DNA of 64,000 nt from NCBI GenBank assembly GCA_965116875.1, contig OZ220733.1, forward strand, positions 4,640,001-4,704,000, written 5' to 3'. The notes under the pieces were generated by a model. It saw nothing but the letters and a program-made list of their open reading frames with translations, was not told where the DNA came from and ran no database searches. This document shows, piece after piece, positions 38,064 through 52,298 of this stretch; position 1 is the stretch's first letter, and every line of letters begins with the position of its first letter. Made by a program: the position numbers and the translations under genes. Source of the DNA: Candidatus Latescibacterota bacterium (GTDB lineage Bacteria > Latescibacterota > UBA2968 > GCA-2709665).

Positions 38064-38969
38064 ATGCGTATCGTTGCGACTGGATTGACGAAGATCTATC
38101 CGAAGGGGACCGTGCCCGCGCTGGACAACGTGGACCTCGAGATCGGAAAGGGGACCTTCGGGCTGCTCGGACCGAACGGCGCGGGAAAAACCACGCTCAT
38201 CAAGATACTTTCAACTCAGATGGCGCCAACGTCCGGCCATGTAAGCGTGGGTGCCTGGGATCTGCAGCGGAACCGCTCCGAGGTTCGTCGCAGTCTGGGA
38301 TATCTTCCCCAGCACTTCGGTTCGTATCCGCAACTGACGGCGTGGGAGTTTCTGGACTATATGGACCGGCTGGCGGCCGGACGGAGACAGAACGGCAGAA
38401 AAGGGCGTGTGCGCGATGCGCTGGAGAACGTGGGTCTTTACGACGTGCGCGACCGCCGGACCGGCACGTTTTCCGGGGGAATGATGCGGCGCCTCGGGAT
38501 TGCGCAGGCCATTGTGGGCGATCCGGAAATCCTGGTCGTCGATGAGCCCACCGTGGGACTCGATCCGGAAGAACGCATTCGGTTCCGGGGAATCCTTGCC
38601 CGGTTGAGTCGGGACCGGGCCATCCTGATTTCAACCCACATCGTGGGCGATATTTCAAGTACCTGCGATGATCTGGCGGTGCTGAACACAGGGCGGATCG
38701 TCTACAGGGGATCTCCCCAGGCGCTGGTTGATCGCGCCAATGGCAAGACGTGGCGCCTGCAGGCGGACGATGCCGAATTCGAATCGATATCCCGGAAGTT
38801 TCTTGTCGTGACGGTCGCGGTGGACGGCGGCCGGATGGACCTCAGGTTCGTGGGCGATGCCCGGCCGCCTGCAAACTCCGAACCGGTACCACCGAATCTC
38901 GAAGACGCGTACGTGTATTTTATGGGTATGGAGAATCCTGAACGGGACGCAGGAGCGCAAGGATCATGA
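38064..38969 (+). CDS. ABC transporter ATP-binding protein (DrrA-like)
   Basis: [41 protein letters not shown]. Confidence 0.93.
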   Translation: MRIVATGLTKIYPKGTVPALDNVDLEIGKGTFGLLGPNGAGKTTLIKILSTQMAPTSGHVSVGAWDLQRNRSEVRRSLGYLPQHFGSYPQLTAWEFLDYMDRLAAGRRQNGRKGRVRDALENVGLYDVRDRRTGTFSGGMMRRLGIAQAIVGDPEILVVDEPTVGLDPEERIRFRGILARLSRDRAILISTHIVGDISSTCDDLAVLNTGRIVYRGSPQALVDRANGKTWRLQADDAEFESISRKFLVVTVAVDGGRMDLRFVGDARPPANSEPVPPNLEDAYVYFMGMENPERDAGAQGS

Positions 38970-41900
38970 ATACGGTCTTCACCATATTGTCCGTAGCCAG
39001 ATACGAGCGCAAAATGCTGATGCGAACAATCCGGTTTCGCATCCTGGGCGGTATCGGCGTACTCATCCCCGTTGTCCTGGGTATCGGCGTGGCGATCGCG
39101 GAATCCAGAGGCGTCGAATTCGAATCCGTCAGCGGAATCGGCGCCTATATGCCCTTCTTCGTCTACAGCCTCCTCCAGACCGTGGTGATCGCGTTTATTG
39201 TGGGAGATTTCAGGGCGGCGGATGAACGCGCGGGAATCTACGAGGTGGTTGCGGCGCGGCCGCTGTCTACAGCCGAACTGGTCATGGGCAAATATCTGGG
39301 GGTACTGGGTGCGCTGATCACGCTGAGCCTGATTGTGCTGGTGCTCAGCCTGGGGGTGCAGGCGGCCAAAATCAGCATTACGGGCGCCCCGTTTGCGATT
39401 CGACCCTATCTGACGTACCTGCTTCTGCTGAACCTGCCGGGGCTGATTTACATGTCCGCCCTTACGTTCTTCCTCGGGGCGGTGCTGCGCCGGCAGGCCG
39501 CGGTGACCGTGCTGACCATCGCGTATGTACTGATTGTCCTCCTGTTCCTCGGACGCCGATATGGCGGGGTCTACGACTTCGGCGCGTTCTTCGCTCCTGT
39601 GTTCTACTCGGATATGCTCGGCCTCGGCGATATTCGACGCGTCGTGGAAATCCGGTTCTTCTACGCCCTGCTTGCCCTGTTTTTCTTCGGCCTGTCAATC
39701 GACCGGTATCCGCGGCTGCCTCAATCCCGGGCCTGGCGCAGGTTCGGCCGGTGTCTGACTGCCGGCGGTTTCGCTGCCGCGCTGGGTCTCTACCTGTATA
39801 TTGAAAACCGCGACGCCTCAGACCTCGCGTACAGGACAGCGCAGCTGGAAGTACATGAGAGATACGCCGAACAGCCAACCGTGGCTGTAACGCATTACAC
39901 GCTCGACCTGGATCTTGCCGCAGACCGGATGCCCCTGCGGGGCACGGCGGTTCTGCGCGTTTCCAACCCTCATTCCGTTCCGCTCGACACGCTGGTGTTC
40001 AGTCTCAACCCGGGATTGAGACTGCGATCCGTGAGTGTGCGAAGCGGAGAGGACGCTGCCGTGAACTGGAGGCGTGAAACCGCCGTCGTACGGGTCGGCC
40101 GGATGCTCCGGCCTGACAGCACCGCGACGCTGGCGTTCGTATACGACGGTTCGATTGACCTCAGCGGATTCGATCTGAAGCGCCATCCGGATGCGAGGCG
40201 TCTGAAGAAACGGCGCGCGGGGCCGGGAAGAAAGGGCGATCTGACCGCCTGGATTCGCGGGAATTCCGTATTCCTGCCGCCCCGCAGCCGGTGGTATCCT
40301 TCGCCGGGCGTGGATTACGGACACGAGGATGGCAGACCCGTGTCCTTCGCCACCGCGGATTTGGATATCTCTCTTCCGGCGGGTCTGGAGGTTGTTACCC
40401 AGGGTGTGCCGGTCAGCCGGAAGGCGAAGGGCGATCGGGAGGTCCATTCGTGGAAAGCGCGTCGCCCCGTACCCTTTCTTTCGCTCAACGCTGGCGTCTA
40501 CCGTGTCTTCCAGGCCGAAATCCATGATATCCAATGCGCCGTTTACGTTCATCCGGCCCATGCCAGGCAGGTCACCTTCTTCGAAGACGCCAGGGACGAC
40601 GCCCTCGAAACGCTGGGCGAAATCCTGGACAGCGTTGAACAGGAAACCGGCCTGACCTATCCCTACGAACGCCTGTCAGTTGTGGAGGTGCCGTTCCAGG
40701 TACAATGGTATTACGACGGATGGGAGGAAGCCGGAGGTCTCGTGCAGCCGGGCGTGCTGATGCTGGAAGAGGACGTCCTGATGCGGCTCAATCTGCAGCG
40801 GCGCCTGAAATGGATGCAGCGGCGGCAGAGACGCAACGACGACCCCGCGAGGATAAAGCGGGATCTGCTGGTCAGCGCGGTCCTGCGCACGTTTCTTGCC
40901 CGGGAATCGTCTCAAAGTGGCGTCTACCGGAGTCCAGTGGCGCACCTCTGGTCCTTCAACAAGGGCTTCGAAGGCGAACACTACTCCCTGCTCAAGCGCG
41001 GAATGCCCGTCTATATTCAGCAACATCTCGAGACCAGCCTGCAGCAAAGCCTGTATTCGCGGCGTGGCAGGTTCCGGGGTCTGTTCCGGCGCAACAGGGG
41101 CGCGCGAGGCGTCTCCTGGGATACGGTAACGACAAAGATGCGCCAGCGTTCCTTCGCGGAGCTGGACCCGGATGCCGACGAGGAACTCTACCGGGCGGTC
41201 GTCGACGCCAAGGGCGCCTCCATGTTCGGGATGATGCAGGCCGTGGTGGGTGACGAGACGTTCAGAGACGTGGTCAGCGGTTTCGAGGCGTCAAACCGGC
41301 ACGCGGCGGTCGACTTCGAGTCGTTCGAACGCGCGGCCGTCGGAGATTCCTCCAGCCGGGCCGAACGACCCAACCTGCATCGCCTCGTCAGCGACTGGCT
41401 GCACGGCACACAGGTTCCGGGATATACGCTCACCAGGGCAAAGGCGTACAAAGTGGACGATGGGTGGGGAATGATCGTGTATCAGGTCGTCGTGCGGATC
41501 CGAAACGGAGAACCGGGGCGCGGATTCGTCCAGATTCGAGCGATGGGGAGGGAGGACGAGGCGGTGAAGGGCGTTGAGATCGAGGGTGGGCAGGAAGTCG
41601 AGGTGGGGTTGATTCTCTGGGAACGGCCGTCGAGAGTCAGCGTCGAGCCGTTTTTTGCAAGAAACCGCCGCGTTCTGATGGCGCCGCTGCGCATACCCGA
41701 GCAGCCGATGGACGGTTCCGCCACGACCTACGTGAGAGAGGTCGCCCCGGATGAGACGGGATTGACCGAGATCATCGTGGACAACGACGACGAAGGCTTC
41801 GAAATGCCGGTCCGGAGGGTGCGGCGTTATTTCCGACCGCAGTTGAAAGGGGACAACTGGCAGGAACGACAGATGCCGTTTTCATTCGGCCGGTATGAGA

Positions 41901-42364
41901 CCAACTACAGGTGGAAGAAACCCGGCGACGGCGCGCAACCGGCGGTCTGGACGGCCCGTTTGCCGCACAGCGGGGATTACGACGTCTACTACTATTTCGT
42001 TCATCCCCGGTTCGCCAGGCGTCTGCGAATGGCCACGGAATTCAGTCTGGCGGTCTGCCACGGCGGCGAGGTGGATACACTGGCGGTCGAAGCGGACAGG
42101 CTCAAGGGCGGCTGGAACGTGATGGGTCGATACCGATTCGAGGGTGGGGAGTTGGCCCGCGTCGAACTGTCCGACCGGGCAAACGGGCGCCTCTATGCCG
42201 ATGCGGTGCGCTGGAGGTACGTGGATCCCGATCACCCGGAAGAGGTGTATGAAGAAGATCTTCCGACGTGGAATTTCGGTCGGGGCCGTCGGGGCGGCGA
42301 CCGGGGCGGGCGAGGGGGCGGCAGCCGGAGCGGCGGAGGGCAAACGCGGGGAAGAGGTTGGTAA
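38966..42364 (+). CDS. ABC-2-type permease fused to a degenerate M1-aminopeptidase-like domain and golvesin-like C-terminal domain
   Basis: About 7 N-terminal TM helices (ERAG..E...RP..GKYLG); THYTLDL, LNPGL, WYP, YPYERLSVVEVP; IIVDNDD.GF..AVW..GDYDVY..YADAVRW. Confidence 0.75.
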   Translation: MNTVFTILSVARYERKMLMRTIRFRILGGIGVLIPVVLGIGVAIAESRGVEFESVSGIGAYMPFFVYSLLQTVVIAFIVGDFRAADERAGIYEVVAARPLSTAELVMGKYLGVLGALITLSLIVLVLSLGVQAAKISITGAPFAIRPYLTYLLLLNLPGLIYMSALTFFLGAVLRRQAAVTVLTIAYVLIVLLFLGRRYGGVYDFGAFFAPVFYSDMLGLGDIRRVVEIRFFYALLALFFFGLSIDRYPRLPQSRAWRRFGRCLTAGGFAAALGLYLYIENRDASDLAYRTAQLEVHERYAEQPTVAVTHYTLDLDLAADRMPLRGTAVLRVSNPHSVPLDTLVFSLNPGLRLRSVSVRSGEDAAVNWRRETAVVRVGRMLRPDSTATLAFVYDGSIDLSGFDLKRHPDARRLKKRRAGPGRKGDLTAWIRGNSVFLPPRSRWYPSPGVDYGHEDGRPVSFATADLDISLPAGLEVVTQGVPVSRKAKGDREVHSWKARRPVPFLSLNAGVYRVFQAEIHDIQCAVYVHPAHARQVTFFEDARDDALETLGEILDSVEQETGLTYPYERLSVVEVPFQVQWYYDGWEEAGGLVQPGVLMLEEDVLMRLNLQRRLKWMQRRQRRNDDPARIKRDLLVSAVLRTFLARESSQSGVYRSPVAHLWSFNKGFEGEHYSLLKRGMPVYIQQHLETSLQQSLYSRRGRFRGLFRRNRGARGVSWDTVTTKMRQRSFAELDPDADEELYRAVVDAKGASMFGMMQAVVGDETFRDVVSGFEASNRHAAVDFESFERAAVGDSSSRAERPNLHRLVSDWLHGTQVPGYTLTRAKAYKVDDGWGMIVYQVVVRIRNGEPGRGFVQIRAMGREDEAVKGVEIEGGQEVEVGLILWERPSRVSVEPFFARNRRVLMAPLRIPEQPMDGSATTYVREVAPDETGLTEIIVDNDDEGFEMPVRRVRRYFRPQLKGDNWQERQMPFSFGRYETNYRWKKPGDGAQPAVWTARLPHSGDYDVYYYFVHPRFARRLRMATEFSLAVCHGGEVDTLAVEADRLKGGWNVMGRYRFEGGELARVELSDRANGRLYADAVRWRYVDPDHPEEVYEEDLPTWNFGRGRRGGDRGGRGGGSRSGGGQTRGRGW

Positions 42365-42423
42365 TCCGCTGTAGACCAGCGAATGATAACCATTATATGA
42401 GGTGCAACTTGAACAGAAAAACC

Positions 42424-43491
42424 ATGAACGGTTATTGGATGGTATTCATGGCTGTTGCCCTTCTGGCCGGATGTGGCGGGCAGACCGAACAGCGTTCCGT
42501 GGATCTGACCGTCCCCGTAACGGTTCAGGCGGTGCGTCTGGACACCATGGAGGCGACGGTGGCGGCCACGGGTACGCTCCGGCCCGTCAGAGAAGCCCGT
42601 ATTCAGACCGAGGTCGAAGGAATTATCCAATATGTGGCGCGGGGCGTTGGAGGACGGCCGACGGAGGGAATGCGGGTGACCCGGAACCAGGTAATCGCCC
42701 GGCTAGTGAACAAGGAGCTTGTCGTAAACGCCCGCCTGGAGTCCCGTGATCTTGCTCGCGCCTCAGCGGAGCGTACGTTGCGCGAGCAGGAGGTACTCGT
42801 CAACCGGAAACTGGGCACGGAGAGAGACCTGGAAGAAGCGCGCCAGGCCCTTGCGGAGGCCGAATCCAACTATGAAGACGCTCTCGTTCAGATCGCCAAG
42901 ACGACGATCCGGACGCCAATCGCCGGCTTTCTGACAGGATTGGCCGATATTACCGAGGGCACGATGGTGGAGGCCCGCACGACCATTGCAACGGTGATGG
43001 ATTACCAACAGGTACTCGTCGATCTCAAAGTTCCGAACGCATATATCGCAACCGTTTCAACGGGCCAGGTCTTGCGCGTGGAGAACTACGCATTGCCCAA
43101 CCGACGGTTTCTGGGGACCGTCAGGGTGGTGGACCCGGCCATCGATCCGGCGACGCGTACGTTCCGGGTGGTGGGGGCGGTGAAAAACCCGAACCGGATG
43201 TTACGGCCGGGGATGTTCGTGAAGGCAGAGATTGTCACAGAGTCTCACGAAGACGCGGTGGTAATCCCGCGACGATTCGTCCTGACGCGCCAGAATCGCA
43301 AGGTGGTGTTCGTCGAGGAGGAGGGAAGGGCGCAGATGCGCGACGTGGAGCTGGGACTGGAGGGATCGGAACAGGTCGAGATTCTCGAAGGGCTTGAACC
43401 TGGCGAGCGCCTCATTACCAGCAACTACGAGACGCTGCGGTCCCGTACGCGCGTGCGTGTAACCGGGGAGGACGCTGCGGGGCGGCGGTGA
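42424..43491 (+). CDS. RND membrane-fusion (periplasmic adaptor) lipoprotein
   Basis: Lipobox LAGC, TGTL.P, IRTPIAG, IDPATRTF, LRPGMF, VEILEGL. Confidence 0.92.
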   Translation: MNGYWMVFMAVALLAGCGGQTEQRSVDLTVPVTVQAVRLDTMEATVAATGTLRPVREARIQTEVEGIIQYVARGVGGRPTEGMRVTRNQVIARLVNKELVVNARLESRDLARASAERTLREQEVLVNRKLGTERDLEEARQALAEAESNYEDALVQIAKTTIRTPIAGFLTGLADITEGTMVEARTTIATVMDYQQVLVDLKVPNAYIATVSTGQVLRVENYALPNRRFLGTVRVVDPAIDPATRTFRVVGAVKNPNRMLRPGMFVKAEIVTESHEDAVVIPRRFVLTRQNRKVVFVEEEGRAQMRDVELGLEGSEQVEILEGLEPGERLITSNYETLRSRTRVRVTGEDAAGRR

Positions 43492-43774
43492 TGAATACGC
43501 GCTGCGAACGTCCGTGGTCCTGACAGTCCATTGCCGACTCAAGAGGTACCGTCCGCGGCGAACGAAACATCGTGAGCGTTCTCGATTGGACCCCTTTGGG
43601 GCCCAGGGACTTCGTGTGGGCCTTCCGGAGGGGTTTTTTCACCCGTCGCCAGACCTCGTCTCCGGGCCGTGTCACATCTGCTCGAGGACGTTTGTTCCTT
43701 CGATCGCGGTCATACATGTAAACCACGGTTTCTGAGCCAAAGAAACCAGCGCTCATTCAAAAAGGGCCAATACG

Positions 43775-46700
43775 ATGTCATTGCCCGAATTTTCCACGAA
43801 ATATCCCGTGACGGTCGCGATGGCGACGTTGGCGGTAGCGCTCCTTGGCTGGATCTCGCTGGACCGGCTCGACGTGGATCTCTTGCCCGACCTGCGTTCT
43901 CCCGTGATCACTGTCGACCTGCGATTTCCCGGAAAGACGCCCAGGGAGATGGAGGAACGGTACGCGCAGCGCCTGGAAGGGGACATCGGTACGGTGCGGC
44001 ACGTAAAACGCGTCCATTCGGTGTCCCGCTCCGGGCAGGCCGTGGTGATCGCGGAGTTCGAGTGGGATGCGGACATGGATTTCGCGGTTCTCGACGTGCA
44101 GAAGAAAGTGGCGCGGTACGCATCGGACCCGGATATCACGAGTCTGGACGTGACGCAGGAAGACCCGCAGGCATTGCCGGTGATGCGTCTGGCTGTTTCG
44201 GGGGCGGACTGGCAGGATCCCGATGAATTGCTGGGCAGCGTGGAGACGATCATCCGGCCCAAGCTCGAAGGGTTGCCGGGGGTGGCTTCGGCTGAAATCG
44301 AAGGGGGAGCCGAAAAGGAGATCCGCGTCATACTGGATTCCTATCTCCTGCAAGCATTCGGCGTGAATTCCGCGACGGTGGTCTCGCGGATTCGTGAAGC
44401 GAATTCGGATGTCTCCGGAGGAACGTTGAAGGACGGGCAGCAATCCTACCTGGTGAAGGGCCTGGGAAGGCTGACCGACCTGGCGGACGTGAACAGCCTG
44501 GTTGTGGGCGAGCGCAGCGGCGGATCTTCGAACGGCGGCGAAAACGCCTCGACCGAACGCGTGCCGGTCACGGTCAGCGACGTGGGTACCGTGGCCCTCC
44601 GGTATAAGGATAGGGAAACCATCGTCCGTCTGGACGGGATGGAGTGCGTAGGGCTTTCGGTCTACAAGGAAGCCGGCGCGAACACCTCTTCAGTGGTTAA
44701 CGGGGTACTGCAGGAACTGGAGAGCCTGGAGGCCGATCTGGCCGGCATCCGGTTTACGGTGGTGGAAAACCAGGCACGCTTTGTCGAACGTGCGGTAAAC
44801 GAAGTCGAAGAGGCGGCAGTTATCGGCGCATTGCTGGCCGTGGGCGTGCTGCTTGCCGCGCTCCGGCAATGGACCGCCACGCTGGTGATCGGTCTTGCCA
44901 TTCCGATTTCCGTTCTGGCGACATTTACGCTGATGTATTTCCAGGGGTTGACGTTGAATGTGATGACCCTGGGCGGTCTCGCGCTCGGCGCCGGAATGCT
45001 GGTGGATAACGCCATCGTCGTGATTGAGAACATCTACCGGCGCCTCGAAAGCGGTGAATCAGCCGCAGAAGCCTCCGTCAGAGGCGCCGGCGAGGTCGGC
45101 GTGGCGATACTGGCGTCCACACTGACGACCGTGTCCGTGTTTCTACCCATCGTTTATCTTCACGGTCTGGCCGGCGAACTCTTCAAGGAACAGGCATGGA
45201 CGGTGGCGTTCTCACTGGTTTCGTCTCTCGCGGTGGCGATGTCGGTGGTCCCCATGATGACCGCACGGCTTTTCAGGCGGTATCCACGCAGGTCCACCGG
45301 GGTCGCCGGGGCGCGGACGTTCCGGCGTTTTCTGGACGCGTCGCTCAACCGTAAAGGCCGCACGACAGCGGTACTGGCAGCCTGCATTGCGGCCGCCTTC
45401 TATATGGCCGCGTCCATCCATACGTCGTTCATTCCCACGGAAGACGAGGGGGTACTCCACCTGGACCTCGCGATGCCGGAAGGCACGAGACTCGAGTCAA
45501 CAGACAGGGTGGCGAGACGCGTTGCGGCCATTTCGCAGGCGGTTGCCGGAGAGGAAGCCCGGCACATCTACCTGCGGGTGGGAACGGATCCGAACCGGTT
45601 CACGGCCGTTGGAGAGCCCACAGGCCCGAACCGGGCCGAACTGACGGTCGTCCTGGGCCCTCGGGCGGACCGCCGTGGCGTTACCGAGCTCACCGCCGCA
45701 CTGGATGCTGCCCTCCTGGACGTGCCGAATATCAAGGTGAACTATAGACTCCATAAATCTGCGTTGGAAGGACTTATACGTGGAGGCGCTGCACCGGTCC
45801 AGGTGGAAGTGAGTGGCGAGAACCTGATATTGCTTCGGGAACTGACGGCAGAACTGAAACGGCGCATGGATGCGTTGTCGACGGTATATAATGTTCGAAC
45901 CAGCTTCCAGGACGGGCAGCCCGAAGTGGACGTCGTGCTACGACCGGACGTCACCGCGGCGTTCGGCCTGACTTCACAAAACCTCGTGCGTGAACTCGAG
46001 CGCAGACTCGGCGGCGAGGAAGCCGGTGAACTGTCCAAAGACCAGCGCGAGCGAACCATCCGGGTGGGTTTCGCGGACGTGGATCTCCGTGAACTGGAAC
46101 ACGCCAGAATTGACGGCCCCGACGGGGCAATGCTCACACTGGGAGATCTCGCGGACCTTCGCGTGGTTCAGGGTCCAAGGGAAATCCTGCGTGACGGACA
46201 GCGCAGGGTGGGGAGGGTATCCGCGTTTCTGGCCGAAGGCATGGTCTTGAGCCAGGCGGCAGCGCAGATCAGGCAGGCGGTTGGGCAGATGGCCGTTCCA
46301 CATGGGTATCGTATAACGATCACCGGAGAGGAACGTGAACGGGCCGAATCATTCGGAGGCCTGCAATTCGCCCTCCTGTTGTCCGTGGTACTCGTCTACA
46401 TGGTCATGGCCTCGCTCTTCGAGTCTTTGCTGCATCCATTTACCGTAATGCTGACAGTGCCGTTGGCCGGCATCGGGGTGGTGTTCGCATTCTGGGGCCT
46501 TGGAGAGGCGTTTGGCGTGATGGCATTCATCGGAGCGATCATGCTGGGAGGCATCGCCGTGAACGACGCCATCATTCTGGTGGATCACATCAACCAGCTG
46601 CGGCGTAAAACCTCCGACGTCAGAACCGCCGTACTCCAGGGCGCGCAGGATCGGCTCCGACCGATCCTGATGACCAGCGCCACGACCATTCTGGCCCTGT

Positions 46701-46858
46701 TGCCCATGGCGGTGGGCGTGGGCGAAGGCGCACGTCTCCGGGCGCCGATGGCGGTGGCGGTCATCGGAGGACTGGTCACATCCACATTGATGACCCTGGT
46801 GGTGATTCCGGTTGTCTACGAACTGATCGAACGGCTCAGAAACAGGAGTGCGGCGTGA
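43775..46858 (+). CDS. AcrB/AcrD/AcrF-family RND permease
   Basis: LDVDLLP, AIPISVLATF, GMLVDNAIVVIENI, LVYMVMASLFES, RLRPILMT, IGGLVTST. Confidence 0.93.
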   Translation: MSLPEFSTKYPVTVAMATLAVALLGWISLDRLDVDLLPDLRSPVITVDLRFPGKTPREMEERYAQRLEGDIGTVRHVKRVHSVSRSGQAVVIAEFEWDADMDFAVLDVQKKVARYASDPDITSLDVTQEDPQALPVMRLAVSGADWQDPDELLGSVETIIRPKLEGLPGVASAEIEGGAEKEIRVILDSYLLQAFGVNSATVVSRIREANSDVSGGTLKDGQQSYLVKGLGRLTDLADVNSLVVGERSGGSSNGGENASTERVPVTVSDVGTVALRYKDRETIVRLDGMECVGLSVYKEAGANTSSVVNGVLQELESLEADLAGIRFTVVENQARFVERAVNEVEEAAVIGALLAVGVLLAALRQWTATLVIGLAIPISVLATFTLMYFQGLTLNVMTLGGLALGAGMLVDNAIVVIENIYRRLESGESAAEASVRGAGEVGVAILASTLTTVSVFLPIVYLHGLAGELFKEQAWTVAFSLVSSLAVAMSVVPMMTARLFRRYPRRSTGVAGARTFRRFLDASLNRKGRTTAVLAACIAAAFYMAASIHTSFIPTEDEGVLHLDLAMPEGTRLESTDRVARRVAAISQAVAGEEARHIYLRVGTDPNRFTAVGEPTGPNRAELTVVLGPRADRRGVTELTAALDAALLDVPNIKVNYRLHKSALEGLIRGGAAPVQVEVSGENLILLRELTAELKRRMDALSTVYNVRTSFQDGQPEVDVVLRPDVTAAFGLTSQNLVRELERRLGGEEAGELSKDQRERTIRVGFADVDLRELEHARIDGPDGAMLTLGDLADLRVVQGPREILRDGQRRVGRVSAFLAEGMVLSQAAAQIRQAVGQMAVPHGYRITITGEERERAESFGGLQFALLLSVVLVYMVMASLFESLLHPFTVMLTVPLAGIGVVFAFWGLGEAFGVMAFIGAIMLGGIAVNDAIILVDHINQLRRKTSDVRTAVLQGAQDRLRPILMTSATTILALLPMAVGVGEGARLRAPMAVAVIGGLVTSTLMTLVVIPVVYELIERLRNRSAA

Positions 46859-49800
46859 TTCTCCCCGATCTTGCGGTCCGGCGGCCGGTGACGACGTCCA
46901 TGTTCTTCGCCGCATTCGCCATATTGGGCGTCGTGTCGTGGACGAGGCTTCCGATTCAACTCTTTCCCGAGCTGATCTTTCCCGAGGTGTTTGTCACGCT
47001 GACGCTGCAGGGCGCCTCTCCGGAACAGGTAGAGAGAGATCTGCTGATTCCGGTAGAAGGGGAGATCGGCAAGCTCGACGGCGTTCAGGAGATGGAATCG
47101 TTCGCGACGGCCAACCGGGGGGGAATCCGGATATCCTACGCCCCCGACGTGGATATGAAATTCGCCCTGCTTCAGCTGCAGAGCAACCTGAACAGATTGC
47201 AGCCGACATTGCCCGAGCGCACGCAGACCGATGTGCGCAGGTTCGACTCGACGGATTTCAGCAGCAGCATTATGGAGCTTCACGTGCTTGCCGACTGGGA
47301 CCTGAACTCGTTGCGTGAGTTCACGGAGGAAAAGATCCGACCCGAACTGGAGTCTGTCGACGGTGTTGTGAACGTATCTATAATGGGCGGGCGCCGCAGC
47401 GCCGTGGAAATCGTCCTTGATCCGTTTCTGCTGGAGGCGCATGGCCTTTCGGCGGGGCAGGTGCGGACGAGACTGAACAGCCATAACCGGAGGCGCGAGT
47501 ACCTGGGCCGGGTATTCGACGGGAACCGGGCCTATTCAGTGAGTATTCAGGGACAGTTCACGGACCTGCGTCAGATTCGCGACCTCGTTGTGAACGACGA
47601 CGGCACGCTCAGGCTGGGCGACGTTTCGCGGATCGCATACGGCCTTCAGGAACAGGCCGACCGGCACAGGGTCAATGGCAAACCGTCGGTCGGCGTACGA
47701 ATCCAGAAGGACGACGAAGCGAATCTGATCGAAGTGGCCGCGGCCGTGGAAGCCACCATCGGGCGGCTGAATCGGGACCTGGAAAGTGAAGGCGTGGAAC
47801 TGGGGGTGAGTTCCTCCCAGGCCGATTTGATGAACGGGGCGCTTTCCACCCTGAAACAGGCGGCCGTGGTCGGCGCCGTACTCGGACTGATCGTACTCTT
47901 TCTGTTTCTTCGTAACCTTCGCTTTGTATCGGTTCTCCTGCTGGCCATCCCGGTTTCACTCCTGATGACCTTCAATCTGATGTACCTGGGCGGACTGTCT
48001 GTCAACGTCCTGTCGCTTTGCGGTCTCGCCCTCGCGATGGGAATGCTTGCAGACAACGGCATCGTGGTGATGGAGAATATCTTCAAACACCACGAGCGAG
48101 GAAAATCGCCGGCTCGCGCTGCGCGTGACGGGGCTTCCGAAGTGGGGCGCGCCGTGGTCGCGGCAACGGCAACCACGGTAACCGCATTCCTGCCGGTTCT
48201 GTTTATCGAAAGCGATACGCGGGACCTGCTGCGCGAACTCGCGTTGTCCATGGCGTTTCCGCTCCTGGCGTCTCTGCTGGTTGCGCTTACGCTGGTTCCC
48301 GCCCTCGCCGTCCGCGCGTTGAGCCGGGAGGTCCGGCAGCCGCCGGACGTCCGCGGTCTGCTGGAACGGTACACCCTCCTGCTGAAGGCCGCCTTGCGCC
48401 ACCGCGCGTCGGTGGTCCTGGCCGTGGGTGGCGCTCTCCTGCTGACGCTCGTACTGGCTTTCTTCTACCTGCTTCAACAGCAGGTACGGAGAGAGGAGAC
48501 GCGCTTTACGGTTTACGTGAATCTGCCGGAAGGAGCCACGCTGGATGCCACGGATGAGGTGGTGAAACAGGTGGAAGCGTCCGTTCGGGAGGTGCCCGGA
48601 CTGGATCGGTTTACGACGTCGGTCCGGGAGGCCGAGGCCGACGTAACCGTCATGCTGCTCAACCGCTCCGACCGGCCCGCCGGTATCTCGATGGATGAAA
48701 TCAAGGAACGGCTGGACGAGAAACTGCAGAATGTACAGGGTGGCGTCGTCGGTTACGAACCCAGGGCGCGGGCGGGGAGGGGCGGCCGCGGGCAGGGGAT
48801 CGGGCAACGACGGAGACGCGGTTCCGGAGGCTTCGATCTGACCGGGGCCGCGCCGAACGAGCAGGTTGTGGTACGCGGATATGACTTTACGATACTGACG
48901 ATGCTTGCGAACGACGTGTCATACCGGCTCGAGGAACTCGAGGAAGTGGATGCCAACAGCGTACGCGCGGACGCCGAGCGGAGTTCGCCCGAGGTCCAGG
49001 TGATACCCGAGGCGGCCGCCCTGTTCGACCGGCGGCTCGGCGCGCAGGAGGTTCTCGCCGCAATGGGCGACACCCGATGGGACGGATTCCGCACAACCGT
49101 TCCGTTTCTGTTGCCCGACGCGACCGAGATACCCATCGAGGTACGTACGATTGAAGAGGAGGACCGCGACCGGTACGGGCTGGCCGAATTCCGTCGTTCG
49201 CGTATTCTGAATCAGGACGGCCACTATGTGCCTCTTGACGAAGTCGCGCGGGTCCGGACTGACGAGGGCAGAAGCAGCCTGCTTCGGACCGATCAGGCCC
49301 GCCGGCTCGTGGTTACCTACAGGTTTCCTTCGGAAATCCTGGATTCACAGCCCCGGTTGGAACTTGCGAGACGGGTCGTGCGAGCGACGCTGCAGGATAT
49401 GGTGCTGCCTGAGGGTTATTCTATCGAAATCATCGAGGCGCACGAGGAGATGATCTACTATTGGATGATGGCAATCGCCGCGGTACTGATCTATATGATT
49501 CTGGCGTCGCTGTTTGAATCGCTCTCCTCTCCGATCATCATCCTGTGTACGCTCCCGCCCGCCGCCATCGGCTCCTGCTGGGCGCTGATGATGTCAGGCA
49601 CGGGCCTGAGCCAGCAGGAGGGCCCCATGGCGCTCCTGGGATTCATCGTCCTGCTGGGTATTGCCGTAAATAACGGGATCATCCTGGTCGACGCGGTCGG
49701 TGTACTCAGGTCCCGGTTCGGCTACCGCCGTGAACGCGCTGTACTGACCGCGGCGAGGTCCCGCCTGCGACCCATCCTCATGACGACGGCCACGACGCTG

Positions 49801-51567
49801 CTCGGGGTTCTTCCGCTGGCGCTGGAATTCGGCGGCGATTTTGAGATCTGGCCGCCGTTTGCGATCACGGTGCTGGGAGGATTGTCGCTTTCCATGATGT
49901 CCACGCTGATCCTGATTCCGGTTGTGTATATGGGACTGGATCAGATCGGCGACTGGCTTGCCGGAATCGGGTTGGTTGGAGTCACGCTCTCACTGCTGGC
50001 CACTGCCGCGGCCGGCTATGGCGTTTACGTCCGATATGAGAGCATTTTCTGGTTGAGCCTGTCGATATTACCAATCTGGGGCGCATTTCTGGCCGCTGCG
50101 TGGATCATTCAACGGGTGTATTACGCCCGGGTCGCCGCCCGCCGCGTGTCGAGCGCCGTGCACTCCATACAACTGAGGAACCTTACCAAGATTTACGGCG
50201 CTCCCGGGCGTTTCACGAGGGAGTGGGCGCGCACGGAGCGCCGGCGAGGGCGGCTGATGAAAACGGGCCTGGAGCCGAAGGACCGCAAGGCGGTTCGCGA
50301 TGCCCTCATCTGGAAACTGCCAATGCTCGCGCTGTTGTCGTTATTCGCGACCTATTTCGAAGACGAGATCTGGATCTATCTGCACGCGTTGGCTTTGGCC
50401 TTTATGGCCTCCCACGTGGGTCGATGTTTCGGAGAACTCCGCCATTGGCATCTGCCGGCGCTGCCGGCCCGTGTCGTCCGACTGCTGCACAAAGTCGCAC
50501 TACCGCTGGCATTGGTCGCCTATGTACACTGGCGGCTGGACCTGCTTTCGATCACGCTTGCCACTTGCGGGACGTGGGCGGGGTATCGTCTGGCGCGGCG
50601 GCTCGCCGACAGGGTGCGGACGGGCGAAATCAGCCCCGATGACCTGACCGGACGTCTTGTGCGGCCGCGCCGCTGGATTTATCGATTGGCGTCGGCCCTT
50701 CCTCTCATTGGCGTTCCACGGCCGGAATTTCGAGCGCTGGCAAACGTCAACCTGGAAATCGGCAGGGGCATGTTCGGTCTGCTGGGTCCGAACGGCGCCG
50801 GAAAGACCACGTTGATGCGTATTCTCTGCCGGGTACTCGAACCCAGCTACGGGTCCATTCTGATCGACGGCCGAAACATCCTGAATAAAGGCTCGATTCA
50901 CGGACTGATCGGGTACCTGCCACAGCACTTCGGCAACTACGGCCACCTTTCCGCATACGAGTTTCTGGAGTACAGAGCGCTGCTCGAGGGCTTCAAGGAC
51001 AGGAAGATCCGCGAGACCCGGGTGATCGAATCTCTGGAGCATGTCAATCTGATCGAACGAAAAGACGATCCCATCGGTTCATTTTCAGGCGGGATGAAGC
51101 AGCGCCTTGGGATCGCGCAGACGCTCCTGCATGCCCCGCTGATCGTCGTCGTGGACGAGCCCACGGCGGGTCTGGATCCACTGGAGCGTATCCGGTTTCG
51201 CAACCTGCTCGCCAGATTGAGTCAGGATCGAATTGTCATTTTTTCCACGCATATCGTGGAAGATATCTCGGGAAGCTGCAATCGGCTGGCGGTACTGGAC
51301 CGGGGGAGATTGCTGTATACGGGAACGCCGGGGGAGATGAGAATTCTGGCGGCGGGCCGGGTGTGGGACGCGGTGGTCTCGGACGGTCGCTTTTCCGAAA
51401 TGGAAGGTGAATTGAAGCTCATCTCGCACCAGCGAACCCCCGACGGCGTCCGGATGCGTTTCCTGTCGGAGCGCGCGCCGGTCGGCATCGGCGCGCAGAG
51501 CGTGGATCCAACCCTGGAGGACGCATATCTATACCTGCTTGGAGGAGGGGAGGGACAGCCGTGCTGA
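46855..51567 (+). CDS. RND permease fused to extra TM segments and a C-terminal ABC ATPase domain
   Basis: Single 1570-aa ORF: RND motifs (ADNGIVVMEN, LASLFES, RLRPILMT) to about 49940, then [44 protein letters not shown]. Confidence 0.88.
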   Translation: MILPDLAVRRPVTTSMFFAAFAILGVVSWTRLPIQLFPELIFPEVFVTLTLQGASPEQVERDLLIPVEGEIGKLDGVQEMESFATANRGGIRISYAPDVDMKFALLQLQSNLNRLQPTLPERTQTDVRRFDSTDFSSSIMELHVLADWDLNSLREFTEEKIRPELESVDGVVNVSIMGGRRSAVEIVLDPFLLEAHGLSAGQVRTRLNSHNRRREYLGRVFDGNRAYSVSIQGQFTDLRQIRDLVVNDDGTLRLGDVSRIAYGLQEQADRHRVNGKPSVGVRIQKDDEANLIEVAAAVEATIGRLNRDLESEGVELGVSSSQADLMNGALSTLKQAAVVGAVLGLIVLFLFLRNLRFVSVLLLAIPVSLLMTFNLMYLGGLSVNVLSLCGLALAMGMLADNGIVVMENIFKHHERGKSPARAARDGASEVGRAVVAATATTVTAFLPVLFIESDTRDLLRELALSMAFPLLASLLVALTLVPALAVRALSREVRQPPDVRGLLERYTLLLKAALRHRASVVLAVGGALLLTLVLAFFYLLQQQVRREETRFTVYVNLPEGATLDATDEVVKQVEASVREVPGLDRFTTSVREAEADVTVMLLNRSDRPAGISMDEIKERLDEKLQNVQGGVVGYEPRARAGRGGRGQGIGQRRRRGSGGFDLTGAAPNEQVVVRGYDFTILTMLANDVSYRLEELEEVDANSVRADAERSSPEVQVIPEAAALFDRRLGAQEVLAAMGDTRWDGFRTTVPFLLPDATEIPIEVRTIEEEDRDRYGLAEFRRSRILNQDGHYVPLDEVARVRTDEGRSSLLRTDQARRLVVTYRFPSEILDSQPRLELARRVVRATLQDMVLPEGYSIEIIEAHEEMIYYWMMAIAAVLIYMILASLFESLSSPIIILCTLPPAAIGSCWALMMSGTGLSQQEGPMALLGFIVLLGIAVNNGIILVDAVGVLRSRFGYRRERAVLTAARSRLRPILMTTATTLLGVLPLALEFGGDFEIWPPFAITVLGGLSLSMMSTLILIPVVYMGLDQIGDWLAGIGLVGVTLSLLATAAAGYGVYVRYESIFWLSLSILPIWGAFLAAAWIIQRVYYARVAARRVSSAVHSIQLRNLTKIYGAPGRFTREWARTERRRGRLMKTGLEPKDRKAVRDALIWKLPMLALLSLFATYFEDEIWIYLHALALAFMASHVGRCFGELRHWHLPALPARVVRLLHKVALPLALVAYVHWRLDLLSITLATCGTWAGYRLARRLADRVRTGEISPDDLTGRLVRPRRWIYRLASALPLIGVPRPEFRALANVNLEIGRGMFGLLGPNGAGKTTLMRILCRVLEPSYGSILIDGRNILNKGSIHGLIGYLPQHFGNYGHLSAYEFLEYRALLEGFKDRKIRETRVIESLEHVNLIERKDDPIGSFSGGMKQRLGIAQTLLHAPLIVVVDEPTAGLDPLERIRFRNLLARLSQDRIVIFSTHIVEDISGSCNRLAVLDRGRLLYTGTPGEMRILAAGRVWDAVVSDGRFSEMEGELKLISHQRTPDGVRMRFLSERAPVGIGAQSVDPTLEDAYLYLLGGGEGQPC

Positions 51568-52283
51568 ACTGGCGGGAACTGCTGTTGACCACGTGGCGGC
51601 TTTTTCGGCTGAGCTGCAGGATTATCTTTCACAGGAAACTGATATTCATGGCCCTGGGCATCCTTGTCTATTTTGCCGCCATGTACGCATTTGCGGTCTG
51701 GCGTCCCGACGAAGGATTCGGCGTATCGAAAGCGCTCCATGTTCTGGTTGAAATTCCCGGCATCGCACTGGCCATCTACCTGACGATGGACCTCGTGACG
51801 GGCGAACGAGACAGGAACACACTGGAGACGTTGTTCAGCACAACCTCGTCGCACTACCGGATCTGGACGATTCGAATGGTGGGGGTCTATCTGGTGCTGG
51901 CGGGAACGCTGATGGGAATGACGGTTGTCGCCTACTTTTTCTTCGCGGAACTGCCGATCCTCCGGGGCGGGTTGAACGCCTTCCTGCCGGCGTGCTTTGC
52001 CGCGGGGCTCACGTTTTACTTTTCCGTTCTCTGTCGAAGCGGAAACGCATCCGCCATGCTCGCTACGGGCGTGATGGGCCTGATGCTGGTTGTCTCACAG
52101 TCAATGCCCGACTCACCTTTCGTGCTCTTTCTGGACAGTTTCGATCCACCGGTGGGAATGGAAGACACGTTGTGGGGCGACCGGGTGTTGCTGAATCGCC
52201 TGGCGGTGGCGCTGCTGTCGGGTCTGCTGCTCTATGTCGGCCTTCGCAAGATGGAATCCAGGGAGCGGCTGGTATCTTCGTAG
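51561..52283 (+). CDS. ABC-2-type permease-like membrane protein
   Basis: About 6 TM helices, ERDRNTLETLF coupling-helix motif, overlaps the upstream fusion gene. Confidence 0.75.
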   Translation: MLNWRELLLTTWRLFRLSCRIIFHRKLIFMALGILVYFAAMYAFAVWRPDEGFGVSKALHVLVEIPGIALAIYLTMDLVTGERDRNTLETLFSTTSSHYRIWTIRMVGVYLVLAGTLMGMTVVAYFFFAELPILRGGLNAFLPACFAAGLTFYFSVLCRSGNASAMLATGVMGLMLVVSQSMPDSPFVLFLDSFDPPVGMEDTLWGDRVLLNRLAVALLSGLLLYVGLRKMESRERLVSS

Positions 52284-52298
52284 GGGTGGTTGTCCTTC

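Follow-up and report, generated by a model that had tools for sequence, protein, structure and literature searches.

Six co-oriented genes occupy positions 38064–52283 (+) of the window, which is a stretch of 64,000 nucleotides from a Candidatus Latescibacterota genome (Table 1). All are located where the original prediction had placed them, and the predicted tally of parts is also correct: two ABC ATPase domains (NBDs), two ABC-2 membrane domains, two RND paralogues and one periplasmic adaptor (MFP). The genes overlap by 4 nt at g1/g2, 4 nt at g4/g5 and 7 nt at g5/g6. The operon flanks in the window contain unrelated metabolism genes and cdaA. The genome is a single closed contig of 5,453,092 bases.

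Table 1. Genes, protein segments and spacer of the locus (window coordinates).
Feature	Position	Strand	Description
g1	38064–38969 (alternative ORF start 37905)	+	free ABC-2-type ATPase, DrrA/GldA/NosF-like, 301 aa
g2	38966–42364	+	ABC-2 permease with large periplasmic domain
g3	ORF 42268–43491; likely gene 42397–43491, alternative start 42424	+	periplasmic adaptor (MFP) lipoprotein
g3-g4 spacer	43492–43774	+	283 nt, GC-rich hairpin then T run (sequence)
g4	43775–46858	+	RND-1, full-length unfused RND permease, 1027 aa
g5	46855–51567	+	RND-2 fused to second ABC ATPase, 1570 aa
g5 part 1	46855–49935	+	RND-2 permease domain, aa 1–1027, 12 TM
g5 part 2	49945–50145	+	extra TM hairpin TM13-TM14, about aa 1031–1097
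g5 part 3	50164–50199	+	displaced NBD beta-strand 1 (IQLRNLTKIYG), A-loop Tyr1114
g5 part 4	50284–50619	+	four-helix membrane insertion, TM15-18, about aa 1144–1255
g5 part 5	50725–51567	+	NBD core and C-terminal regulatory domain, aa 1291–1570
g6	51561–52283	+	small NosY-like ABC-2 permease, 240 aa, 6 TM

The g3-g4 spacer measures about 250 nt in two of the three same-genus loci compared (L116, L134) and about 500 nt in the third (L115), and the gap in other genera is 6–87 nt. With its terminator-like hairpin, the 283-nt spacer separates g1–g3 from g4–g6 in this lineage. The spacer has no Rfam match and a fold z-score of −0.78, and its hairpin is not in the terminator-scan output.

The g1 sequence displays an ABC_tran domain (1.4e-30) and carries Walker A, the Q-loop, an FSGGM signature, Walker B (DEP) and the H-loop. 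Its top NCBIfam models are DrrA and GldA, with scores under their cut-offs. The catalytic motifs (Walker A, Q-loop, signature, the Walker B D-E pair, H-loop) are present in all 14 g1-type NBDs (the Q-loop pattern search missed one, that of L126) and in all six fused NBDs. Within the genome the nearest paralogue of the fused NBD is g1 (45% identity, 247.7 bits; the runner-up has 37%).

The g2 protein has six TM helices and a seventh TM or stalk helix in about the first 300 amino acids, with a positive-inside pattern after TM6 as read from the sequence. A periplasmic part of roughly 850 aa follows, in which an M1-aminopeptidase-like fold (about aa 305–815) is succeeded by a beta-sandwich, a Golvesin_C-like domain at aa 964–1082 and a disordered RGG-rich tail. 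Golvesin_C is recognized by Pfam (2.1e-15), and two further models stay below threshold: ABC2_membrane_3 with 28.5 bits against a cut-off of 31.6, and Peptidase_M1 with 20.7 bits against 27.7. The best Foldseek matches of the AF2 model (pLDDT 78.5, pTM 0.71) are IRAP, ERAP and aminopeptidase N, at an E-value of 2.4e-20 over about 650 aligned columns. The HExxH zinc motif was found in none of 29 g2-like open reading frames; the aminopeptidase-like domain is, on its sequence, catalytically dead.

The only Pfam match of g6 is ABC2_membrane_3, at a sub-threshold score. It is assigned as an ABC-2 permease because its profile matches the membrane domain of g2 (hhalign probability 93.7%, E-value 1.9e-7, 225 columns) and because some homologues are named multi-copper enzyme maturation permease subunit (JGI). 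Structure prediction docks g6 on the fused NBD with an ipSAE of 0.65 (best control 0.00), a mark passed by 58 of 80 solved complexes and by 2 of 110 mismatched pairs, although the score does not separate g6 from g2 as the partner of the NBD. At least 95% of contacts recur between docking runs, and the partner pLDDT is at least 73. The predicted contact is at the canonical ABC-2 coupling interface, so g6 may pass because it resembles transporters already solved.

The adaptor g3 scores 189.8 bits with TIGR01730 RND_mfp (cut-off 94.9) and matches HlyD_D23 at 2e-24. Its true start is probably Met44 or Met53 (42397 or 42424), which is past the g2 stop. A lipobox, LLAGC, follows Met53, so that the predicted MFP lipoprotein is borne out. 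The g4 protein is covered by ACR_tran at residues 5–1018 (2.3e-222) and displays the motifs VDN in TM4, VND in TM10 and RLRPILMT in TM11. RND-1 and RND-2 are about 31–34% identical to each other. The MFP and RND parts have their top scores with multidrug or HAE-1-type models. Both RND proteins retain the TM4 Asp and the TM11 Arg, as do the other RND pumps of the genome. Two residues of AcrB-type pumps, the second Asp of TM4 and the Lys of TM10, are missing from RND-2. Among the RND paralogues of the genome, however, D-N is found in TM4 in 9 of 15 and a Lys at the AcrB K940 position in none of 15. The DN/NN pattern is thus common and gives no sign of lost proton coupling. Both energy modules of the system look functional, judging by their motifs.

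The g5 open reading frame is a fusion. ACR_tran (residues 5–1027, 3.8e-185) and ABC_tran (residues 1296–1438, 1.8e-26) are found on a single stop-free chain, which is the combination that the original prediction had proposed to look for. The closest solved relative of the RND-2 domain is MdtB (5.2e-86), and D400 and N401 (TM4), N939 (TM10) and R972 are invariant across 22 fusions. The best Foldseek matches of the fused NBD are TM_1403 (8.3e-23) and NosF. Its residues K1317, Q1357, S1411–G1413, D1434, E1435 and H1466 are all invariant.

The tether between RND-2 and the NBD consists of six additional TM helices, a hairpin and a four-helix insertion, and its loop charges obey the positive-inside rule. 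The hairpin TM13-TM14 has hydropathy peaks at 1035–1053 and 1067–1085 and is modelled by AF2 as helices 2–41 and 44–77 of a 550-aa C-terminal model (pLDDT 85.5). Beta-strand 1 of the NBD is displaced; it is found about 175 residues upstream of Walker A, with the four-TM insertion in between. In the C-terminal model it is a strand at residues 84–94, and its sequence parallels the N-terminus of g1, IVATGLTKIY. For ABC profiles, the match to the fused NBD begins only near residue 1291–1296, from profile position 2–17 onward. The insertion (AF2 helices 124–144, 151–176, 182–208 and 211–235) splits the beta1-beta2 hairpin of the NBD. The invariant linker residues are W1034, K1112, Y1114, W1124 and W1153, of which K1112 and Y1114, in the displaced strand, are unchanged in all of 22 fusions. 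The four-TM insertion is found only in fusion proteins; a variant, L002, has instead a soluble insert of about 45 aa. No solved fold matched the six linker helices by Foldseek, and the predicted complex shows no confident contact between them and g6.

The fusion is widespread. PF00873 and PF00005 occur together in all 120 homologues among the matches listed, at 87–39% identity, and these are labelled Gemmatimonadota, Latescibacterota, Acidobacteriota and KSB1. Of 168 genomes examined in the phylum, 75 have the fusion-specific linker, and every match is stop-free and in an open frame of at least about 1570 aa. It was also found in 4 of 401 sampled Bacteroidota. Among 44 representative hits, the 14 that are 1565–1590 aa in length all have the linker near residues 1020–1310. 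Searches with the linker gave no convincing stand-alone protein (three short hits, of which two come from contigs 1.3–2.4 kb long) and no unfused form of linker plus NBD. Two MAGs taken from a different collection of genomes still retain the covalent link, at about 31–34% best-segment identity. The RND/linker junction is also spanned, free of indels, by short contigs that come from two other metagenome studies and belong to close relatives; the one near-identical contig, X1, may be the assembly's own source and is not independent. The system is nearly universal, as a single copy, in several genera, with 14 of 14 and 21 of 21 genomes in two of them. We conclude that the joining of RND and ABC parts in one chain is genuine, of ancient origin and under selection.

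The original prediction had also raised conservation of the six-gene set, and the set recurs in all 22 loci examined, namely 20 of the phylum and two in MAGs from the separate collection, one of these labelled Bacteroidales. The genes g2, g3, g4 and g5 are in order at all 20 phylum loci, and a g6 HMM match is present at all 22. The g1 gene is adjacent in 18 of the 20 and in the remaining two is relocated, not lost. By genus, presence of g2 follows that of the fusion. The Bacteroidales MAG (L001) has the same gene order. In L002 all parts are kept in a different order, g1 adjoining a g6-like gene and a g2-like gene adjoining the fusion.

No TolC-like gene is found in the locus or its flanks, as had been noted at the outset. 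Eight OEP-type genes (16 half-domain matches) are present elsewhere in the genome. In three relatives an OEP gene is within the operon: L130 has it between g2 and g3, L141 next to g2 and L002 downstream of the fusion. L001 has a 504-aa open reading frame where L130 has its OEP gene, and judged by gap length only, a g2-g3 gap of about 1.5 kb is shared by L001 and six further phylum loci. The absence of TolC here looks like a lineage-specific loss or relocation.

It is very probable that these genes form a genuine, physically coupled RND-ABC system. What the analysis shows is how the genes are built, that this structure is conserved, that the catalytic motifs are intact and which folds are present. 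The assembly beyond the covalent link, the stoichiometry and the energy coupling are inferred; transport direction and substrate are guesses. The system would be a composite envelope exporter, in which a tripartite RND pump (g3, g4, g5 and an outer-membrane factor, which distant relatives encode in the operon and which is here presumably supplied in trans) is tied to an ABC-2 transporter of type V (NosFY/DrrAB-like). The g6 permease would dock on the fused NBD by its N-terminal helix and the TM2-TM3 coupling helix. The g1 and g2 proteins would complete the ABC part; they may form the other half of one heterodimer, or a second transporter of their own.

With respect to the first of these, it is possible that a single fused subunit is part of an MdtBC-like heterotrimer and that its NBD pairs with the free g1 ATPase, as had been proposed. 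A single heteromeric ABC unit is consistent with g1 as the nearest paralogue of the fused NBD, with the homology of g6 to the g2 membrane domain, and with the retention of all four ABC parts in L002 although their adjacency is swapped. A counterargument is that g1+g2 pairs also stand alone (L136, L137, L139, L140), where 15–20 kb of neighbouring sequence holds no RND, MFP or g6-like gene; in genus g11 such pairs arose by recent duplication of the operon copy. The g1+g2 type can thus work as its own transporter, presumably homodimeric. An assembly of two fused RND-2 chains and one RND-1, with the fused NBDs dimerizing over a g6 dimer, fits equally well.

The reading that we prefer, and to which we give about an even chance, is a two-step relay in which an ATP-driven ABC step feeds proton-driven RND expulsion. 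The ABC-2 part would pick up an amphiphilic or peptide-like substrate in the cytoplasm or the inner leaflet and carry it across to the periplasmic face. The pseudo-peptidase domain of g2 might retain it at that face, a role suggested by the fold alone. The RND trimer would then take the substrate from the periplasm or outer leaflet into the adaptor and the outer-membrane channel. The fusion would hard-wire the hand-over between the two steps, and the unfused second RND paralogue would resolve the mismatch of a two-fold ABC with a three-fold RND. Several points count against this reading: g1+g2 modules can work without any RND, the locus has no outer-membrane factor gene, the 283-nt spacer divides the operon in this lineage, and the linker helices match no solved fold.

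The cargo may instead be a self-made lipid, lipopeptide, glycolipid or polysaccharide precursor, extracted from the inner membrane by the ABC-2 part and delivered by the RND pump to the outer membrane or surface. For the most part, ABC-2 families (Wzm/Wzt, TarGH, NodIJ, Nos, Gld) serve products that the cell itself makes for its envelope or for secretion. The g2 protein has a Golvesin_C-like domain, and Atlas neighbours bear the automatic name xanthan lyase family, a hint at glycan binding. The near-universal single-copy occurrence in several genera fits housekeeping better than an accessory drug pump. However, no conserved biosynthetic genes are found beside the operon, and the adaptor and RND proteins score best with drug-pump models. 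The system is also absent from 93 of the 168 phylum genomes by this linker query and is thus not essential. The two-step logic is that of the relay and only the cargo differs. We regard this envelope role as unlikely, although it ranks first among the alternatives.

A lower probability is given to an ATP-gated or ATP-powered RND pump. Here the fused NBD, with g1 or a second fused copy, would drive or gate the RND cycle with no transport through an ABC membrane domain, and g6 and g2 would be coupling or regulatory subunits. In the AF2 model three points anchor the NBD to the membrane and it adjoins the RND TM bundle, and the short tether of L002 would put it directly beneath RND-2. The missing second TM4 Asp and TM10 Lys of AcrB type in RND-2 also point this way, but the pattern is common among the genome's other RND paralogues. 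A pure gate would have no need of two complete ABC-2 membrane domains and their coupling helices, yet all 22 loci keep both, and the predicted docking site of g6 is the groove normally used for transport coupling.

It is somewhat more doubtful still that g1+g2, the fused NBD with g6, and the RND pump are two or three independent, merely co-regulated transporters, for which fusion secures co-localization or equal expression. The stand-alone g1+g2 modules and the movement of g1 out of the operon in two genomes favor independence. Against this, the parts stay together even where their order is shuffled (L002), the link with its conserved six-TM tether persists at low identity, which is hard to account for unless the modules are functionally coupled, and the linker-plus-NBD segment was not found in unfused form. 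Finally, an artefact, in which a missed stop codon, frameshift or chimeric assembly mimics a fusion, is extremely improbable and is refuted by conservation of the fusion across homologues: the frame is clean, the genome closed, hundreds of independent homologues are also fused, contigs from other studies cross the junction and invariant residues occur throughout the linker.

No description of an RND-ABC fusion was found in the literature searched, in agreement with the original prediction, which knew of no characterized example. Two pump types thought to operate separately may act here as one machine.

As in MdtABC, a single MFP gene precedes two neighbouring RND paralogues of ancient divergence, and MdtB is the best solved relative of RND-2. 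Heterotrimers are known for MdtABC-type pumps (PMC8277102). The heterotrimer proposed here is putative, the Mdt subunits have neither an NBD nor extra TM helices, and TM4 here has D-N and TM10 N-N or N-D instead of D-D and K. MacAB-TolC is similar in its ABC transporter with a large periplasmic domain and an MFP, in the fusion of an NBD with membrane segments, and in the outer-membrane factor seen in operons of the relatives. Unlike MacB, which has a type VII fold with four TM helices (in part PMC8277102), the present system has ABC-2 (type V-like) permeases, an M1-peptidase-fold periplasmic domain and a covalently attached RND pump.

NosDFY, DrrAB, GldAFG and YbhGFSR share the ATPase-plus-permease gene pair of each module. 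The likeness to NosDFY and other ABC-2 systems extends to the NBD fold, closest to TM_1403 and NosF, and to g6, homologues of which are named NosY-type permeases (JGI). However none of these systems has an RND fusion, and g2 adds a pseudo-aminopeptidase domain. To our knowledge none has an NBD interrupted by TM helices. Single-component inner-membrane pumps cooperate with tripartite RND pumps, and in known cases the two are separate, physically unlinked proteins. The proposed relay has the same two steps, with substrate brought to the periplasmic side and then removed across the outer membrane by the RND pump, but the link between them is here covalent and conserved.

The locus at positions 38064–52283 displays six co-oriented genes, and open reading frame analysis together with Pfam and NCBIfam searches bears out every descriptive item of the original prediction as to their types. 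The genes encode a free ABC ATPase (g1), an ABC-2 permease with a large additional domain (g2), an adaptor (MFP) lipoprotein (g3), two RND permeases, RND-1 (g4) and RND-2, the latter fused to an ABC ATPase (g5), and a small NosY-like permease (g6). There are 4–7 nt overlaps at the g1/g2, g4/g5 and g5/g6 junctions. A lipoprotein signal is present in g3, with the lipobox LLAGC after Met53.

Genes of the RND-ABC locus and their profile matches
Gene	Position (nt)	Strand	Product and features
g1	38064–38969	+	ABC ATPase; Pfam ABC_tran 1.4e-30; best NCBIfam models DrrA and GldA, both under their cut-offs
g2	38966–42364	+	1132 aa; N-terminal ABC-2-like membrane domain, Golvesin_C 2.1e-15, weak Peptidase_M1 match in large C-terminal part
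g3	start 42397 or 42424, past g2 stop	+	RND-type adaptor; TIGR01730 189.8 bits (cut-off 94.9)
g4	43775–46858	+	Full-length RND permease; ACR_tran 2.3e-222
g5	46855–51567	+	1570 aa, without internal stop; ACR_tran residues 5–1027 (3.8e-185) and ABC_tran residues 1296–1438 (1.8e-26)
g6	51561–52283	+	240 aa, six TM; ABC-2 profile match only sub-threshold

None of the flanking genes is related to the system. Upstream of the locus lie genes for a TPP enzyme, an FAD oxidoreductase and a RidA-like protein; downstream of g6 are cdaA (on the opposite strand) and genes for a TPR protein and a beta-propeller protein. Farther upstream, positions 30120–32375 encode a 751 aa protein whose C-terminal domain is N,N-dimethylformamidase beta-subunit-like (9e-70) and which also has a laminin-G-like domain; genes for homocysteine S-methyltransferase, a TPP enzyme and an FAD oxidoreductase come next. 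The cdaA gene, for a c-di-AMP synthase with a YbbR-like region, is at 52299–53552 on the minus strand. Downstream of the TPR protein (53760–54455), an 1180 aa protein (54452–57994) displays PQQ/BamB-like and FG-GAP beta-propeller repeats.

Within the locus, a 283 nt non-coding spacer separates g3 and g4 (43492–43774) and contains a GC-rich hairpin followed by TTTTTT (about 43590–43640). The spacer is about 250 nt long in two of the three same-genus loci fetched (L116 and L134), about 500 nt in L115 and 6–87 nt in other genera. In the window's lineage it may divide the operon, giving two transcripts. The fold of the spacer is no better than that of shuffled sequences (z −0.78), an Rfam scan of positions 36000–54000 gave no match, and a promoter/terminator scan gave a result at chance level.

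The fusion of RND-2 with an ABC ATPase domain in g5 is not a product of a missed stop codon or of misassembly. The genome of this organism is a single contig of 5,453,092 bases and the frame is clean. A search with g5 residues 1030–1570 shows the RND and ABC ATPase domains (PF00873 and PF00005) together on one chain in 120 of 120 listed proteins, whose identity to g5 ranges from 87% down to 39%. Among the matches listed, most fusion homologues are 1540–1650 aa in length, and those with names are labelled Gemmatimonadota, Latescibacterota, Acidobacteriota or candidate division KSB1, or just "bacterium". The RND/linker junction is also bridged, without indels, by contigs of other metagenome studies (X2 record 10 and X3 record 22), which differ there by substitutions only. 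An identical 33-kb contig (X1) is possibly the assembly's own source and is not independent evidence; coverage in X2–X4 consists of scattered short contigs, and gaps in it carry no weight. Close relatives of positions 49000–51700 in X2–X4 are from runs labelled as sponge and coral-reef metagenomes, with 0.23–0.44 of the sampled words shared. A depth peak at 50729–50819 stems from the Walker A regions of many other organisms.

The stretch of g5 between RND-2 TM12 and the core of the ABC ATPase domain (NBD), here termed the linker, provides a 266 aa query that is without any ABC or RND profile. It is found in 75 of 168 genomes of the window's phylum (29 of the 52 high-quality genomes), with all 14 genomes of the window's genus and all 21 of another genus carrying it. 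No phylum match has an internal stop codon, and the frame remains open over about 1570 aa or more wherever the contig is long enough. Residues W1034, K1112, Y1114, W1124 and W1153 of the linker are invariant across 22 fusions. Among the sampled Bacteroidota genomes, 4 of 401 have the linker, the query's own counted. Among 1.84 billion representative proteins it matches 44 clusters, and all 14 representatives of 1565–1590 aa have it at about positions 1020–1310. Another 29 of the 44 are shorter than 1200 aa; a few of these, of 400–526 aa, begin near the junction and, taken without context, are indistinguishable from fragments. When scoring covered the 8000 candidates with the most words in common, three shorter linker proteins were found, two of them on contigs of 1.3–2.4 kb. 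A related-locus search of genome contigs was keyed on generic ABC motifs and gave mostly ordinary ABC ATPases, with fusions only at L001 and L002, two MAG loci of a separate genome collection.

Some genomes of genus g31 display very long open frames at the linker (1768–2612 aa) and frames of up to 3004 aa around g2 and the fusion. A triple fusion of RND, NBD and g6 in g31 and in locus L124 was considered and rejected, as the long frames containing g6 are out of frame with the NBD and RND-2 HSPs when compared by hand from match coordinates. At least those containing g6 are spurious, a feature of GC-rich DNA.

The gene set is conserved. Genes g2, g3, g4 and g5 are in the same order in all twenty 20-kb loci from the phylum, and g1 is adjacent in 18; in the two remaining genomes a g1 of 65–68% identity is found elsewhere on the chromosome. 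A g6 profile match is present in all 22 operon loci examined, including L001 and L002. The presence of g2 by genus tracks that of the fusion closely, with mismatches mainly in incomplete genomes. The L001 locus, from a Bacteroidales MAG, has the gene order of the window at 23–54% identity. The order in L002 is MFP, g1, a g6-like gene (hhalign 98.4%), RND-1, a g2-like gene (hhalign 99.9%), the fusion and an outer-membrane factor (OMF).

Extra g2 paralogues are found in family f10, whose genomes (G018, G014 and G011) have 3–8 g2 matches; the pseudo-M1 ABC-2 permease family seems to have expanded here. In the f10 locus L140, from G018, one ATPase gene is followed by two tandem g2-like permease genes without RND genes (7440–15008). 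The g2-like matches of several g31 loci and genomes (L125, L128, L129, G159 and G164–G167) show one in-frame TGA, and L125, L128 and L129 are left out of alignment A4.

No OEP/TolC gene was detected in the window's locus, as the original prediction had noted, or in its flanks, and eight OEP genes are present elsewhere in the genome. Seven of the 20 phylum loci, and also L001, have about 1.5 kb between g2 and g3. In L130 this interval is an OEP/TolC-type gene (1.2e-48) and in L001 it holds a 504 aa open reading frame. An OEP gene, 57% identical, lies beside g2 in L141, and the OEP gene of L002 follows the fusion (1.6e-27). The fuller form of the system is therefore a seven-gene unit, and the OMF looks to have been lost or moved in the window's lineage.

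The NBD of g1 is contiguous and its N-terminus reads MRIVATGLTKIYPKG.... The g5 counterpart of its first strand, IQLRNLTKIYG, is at residues 1104–1115 and the second strand and Walker A are found only at about residues 1292–1318. In an AlphaFold2 model of g5 residues 1021–1570 (56 sequences, pLDDT 85.5, pTM 0.70) the NBD fold is discontiguous, with the first strand about 175 residues before the second and four TM helices between them. The order in the model is TM13 and TM14, an 11-residue strand (the displaced beta-1), an amphipathic helix, TM15–18, a short helix and then a normal NBD. As read from the sequence, loops beside the strand, after TM16 and after TM18 are rich in Arg and Lys and the TM15–16 loop is acidic. 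The tether topology therefore obeys the positive-inside rule, with the chain back in the cytoplasm each time. The Tyr of KIYG, the A-loop residue in ordinary NBDs, is invariant in the fusions; this points to the displaced strand as a probable part of the working ATP site. The L002 fusion is shorter (1437 aa), has its strand, LQIEIDHLTRIY, about 45 residues beyond TM12 and displays a soluble insert of about 45 aa in place of the four TM helices. A Foldseek search places the fused NBD core closest to TM_1403 and NosF, and the same type of search with the six-TM tether gave no match among solved structures.

Both g1 and the fused NBD have the A-loop aromatic, Walker A, Q-loop, signature, Walker B with catalytic Glu, and H-loop. 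The motif residues of the fused NBD are invariant in alignments of 22 and 56 fusions, and Walker A, the Q-loop, the xSGGM signature, Walker B DEP and the H-loop are kept in 14 g1-type and six fused NBDs, one g1-type row (L126) having been missed by the Q-loop regular expression. In the genome, the nearest paralogue of the fused NBD is g1 (45% identity, 247.7 bits, vs 37% and 130 bits for the next). Gene g6 is homologous to the first ~250 residues of g2 by profile comparison (probability 93.7%, E-value = 1.9e-7); BLASTP alone shows nothing. Thus the locus holds two paralogous NBD–TMD sets. Pfam ABC2_membrane_3 is under its cut-off for both g6 and g2, PF12679/PF12698 are found on some g6 homologues, and the ABC-2 helix pattern (N-terminal interface helix, six TM helices, TM2–TM3 coupling helix) is visible in the AlphaFold2 model of g2.

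A predicted complex of g6 with the fused C-terminus gave an ipSAE of 0.65 (median of three runs) vs 0.00 for the best control; 58 of 80 solved complexes attain this mark, as do 2 of 110 mismatched pairs. Contact agreement between runs was at least 95% and partner pLDDT at least 73. The predicted contacts are between NBD residues 1322–1383 and g6 residues 6–24 and 85–101, including the conserved ERDRNTLE motif, and in the model they correspond to the canonical ABC-2 coupling interface. No confident contact involves the helices of the tether. The high score may stem from resemblance to transporters of solved structure, and it cannot tell g6 and g2 apart; involving g6 and the fused C-terminus alone, the prediction has no bearing on stoichiometry.

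The g2 AlphaFold2 model (26 sequences, pLDDT 78.5, pTM 0.71) displays a membrane part with an interface helix, six TM helices and a 46-residue seventh helix, and then a beta-domain, a mixed domain, a helical domain, two beta-sandwiches and a disordered RGG-rich tail. The large domain is placed in the periplasm because of the basic residues after TM6. Amino acid positions ~305–815 have an M1 fold like that of IRAP, ERAP1/2 and aminopeptidase N (Foldseek E-value 2.4e-20, probability 1.00), in alignments of about 615–680 columns at ~10% identity. The HEXXH-(18)-E zinc site is absent, HExxH being found in none of 29 g2-like open reading frames, and for this reason g2 is not classed as a peptidase. 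The periplasmic domain is a pseudo-aminopeptidase, and most plausibly it is a binding module. Atlas neighbors of g2 are uncharacterised "golvesin C-terminal-like" and "ABC permease/M1 aminopeptidase" clusters. The Arg/Gly-rich tail is at 42239–42364 (aa positions 1092–1132, GRGRRGGDRGGRGGGSRSGGG...).

The ACR_tran profile matches both RND permeases end to end, at positions 3–1020 of 1021 in g4 and 3–1019 in g5, and both have the full 12-TM architecture with its two large periplasmic loops. NCBIfam RND_permease_2 scores are 617.7 bits (g4) and 525.3 bits (g5) vs a cut-off of 1250; the two are HAE-1-like members of the RND superfamily and not equivalogs of named pumps. Identity to their own orthologues is 41–96% for RND-1 and 31–96% for RND-2, and only ~26–34% between RND-1 and RND-2, which are ancient paralogues. 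The AcrB-type relay consists of two Asp in TM4, a Lys in TM10 and an Arg in TM11, and of these g4 and g5 keep the first Asp and the Arg only. Aligned to MdtB, RND-2 displays Asp-Asn in place of Asp-Asp, and Asn for the TM10 Lys; RND-1 has Asp-Asn in TM4 and Asn-Asp in TM10. Reading the RND-2 pattern (D-N / N-N) as a degenerate relay, and so as a sign of ATP drive, was considered and rejected: D-N is shared by 9 of the genome's 15 RND paralogues, and the Lys is absent from all 15. The D-N pattern is the local RND type rather than a defect of this pump, and it is no evidence either way on proton coupling. By analogy with the family, the RND subunits would form a homo- or heterotrimer with the MFP and an OMF. 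The periplasmic part of RND-2 contains a Gly/Arg-rich loop (48760–48870, aa ~636–672 of g5) whose Gly-richness is conserved in the fusion consensus. A second adjacent RND gene pair in the genome (contig C1, 247420–253934; open frames of 1289 aa and 1048 aa) is possibly another MdtBC-like tandem.

The interpretation offered in the original prediction stands in part. The RND-ABC fusion is real and conserved (120/120 listed homologues, 22/22 loci with g6), and the single heterodimeric ABC unit of that prediction, with g1 paired to the fused NBD, is one of two arrangements to be weighed. Favoring the heterodimer, the two NBDs are mutual paralogues, as are the membrane domains, and all four ABC parts are kept despite the swapped adjacency in L002. 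The other arrangement has two homodimeric ABC units, where two fused RND-2 chains and one RND-1 would supply the NBD dimer. Here the evidence comes from g1 and g2 found alone in L136, L137 and L139 (and in L140, with two g2 genes), with no RND, MFP or g6-like open reading frame in 15–20 kb, and therefore the g1 and g2 type can work without the fusion. In addition, the stand-alone g1 of genus g11 is sister to the operon g1 of the same genus with support 99/99, in a tree whose outgroup NBDs are partial and on very long branches and which is read only for this placement and for the separate fused-NBD clade. Under either arrangement the unfused second RND paralogue is a natural answer to the fitting of a two-fold ABC unit onto a three-fold RND unit.

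That the locus encodes a genuine, physically coupled RND-ABC system is very probable. The chances of a two-step relay from ABC to RND seem about even. In such a relay the ATP-driven ABC-2 part would carry its cargo, amphiphilic or peptide-like, as far as the periplasmic face, the g2 pseudo-peptidase would possibly hold it there, and the RND part with the adaptor and the outer-membrane factor would expel it. A somewhat more tentative proposal is that of a dual-energised efflux nanomachine, in which an ABC half-transporter (fused NBD and g6) sits inside an RND heterotrimer, and ATP and proton-motive force serve one substrate path in a single complex. RND-1 would then be present to reconcile two-fold ABC with three-fold RND symmetry. 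The complex would have either two RND-2 and one RND-1 with a fused-NBD homodimer, or one RND-2 and two RND-1 with the fused NBD paired to g1 and g6 to g2. The four-TM insertion would pass ATP-dependent movements into the membrane beside the RND proton relay.

The fusion sequences are already in databases. Some members carry the JGI automatic annotation "AcrB / ABC-type ATPase", and other current annotations are "efflux RND transporter permease subunit" or "ATP-binding cassette domain-containing protein". No study of the system and no description of an RND-ABC fusion was found in the search listings and abstract openings covered, nor in the passages of a 2021 review of tripartite systems (PMC8277102) returned by a term search. 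With members in several phyla and in 75/168 genomes of this one, a conserved covalent RND-ABC chimera would be the first hard-wiring of two energy sources. It would also offer a natural system for the study of substrate hand-over from a cytoplasm-facing to a periplasm-facing transporter, and a case study in fitting two-fold and three-fold machines together. The NBD is unusual in having its fold split by transmembrane helices, and the pseudo-aminopeptidase domain of g2 points to a periplasmic substrate receptor of a new kind.

Textbook tripartite pumps are powered by ATP (MacB and HlyB types) or by the proton gradient (RND type), not by both. Inner-membrane pumps are not known to cooperate with RND pumps other than via the shared periplasm, and no TM-interrupted NBD is known to us among MdtABC, MacAB-TolC, NosDFY-type systems or cooperating pumps. 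MdtABC has two RND paralogues with one adaptor, as is the case here, but is not a covalent chimera. The same distinction applies to MacAB-TolC, a tripartite pump driven by an ABC transporter that has a periplasmic domain, and to NosDFY and like ABC-2 systems; all of these are among the closest known systems. Cooperation of single-component pumps with RND pumps is functional only and involves no covalent chimera. The system described here is a variant of tripartite efflux systems, and it could be a categorically new one if dual energisation is shown.
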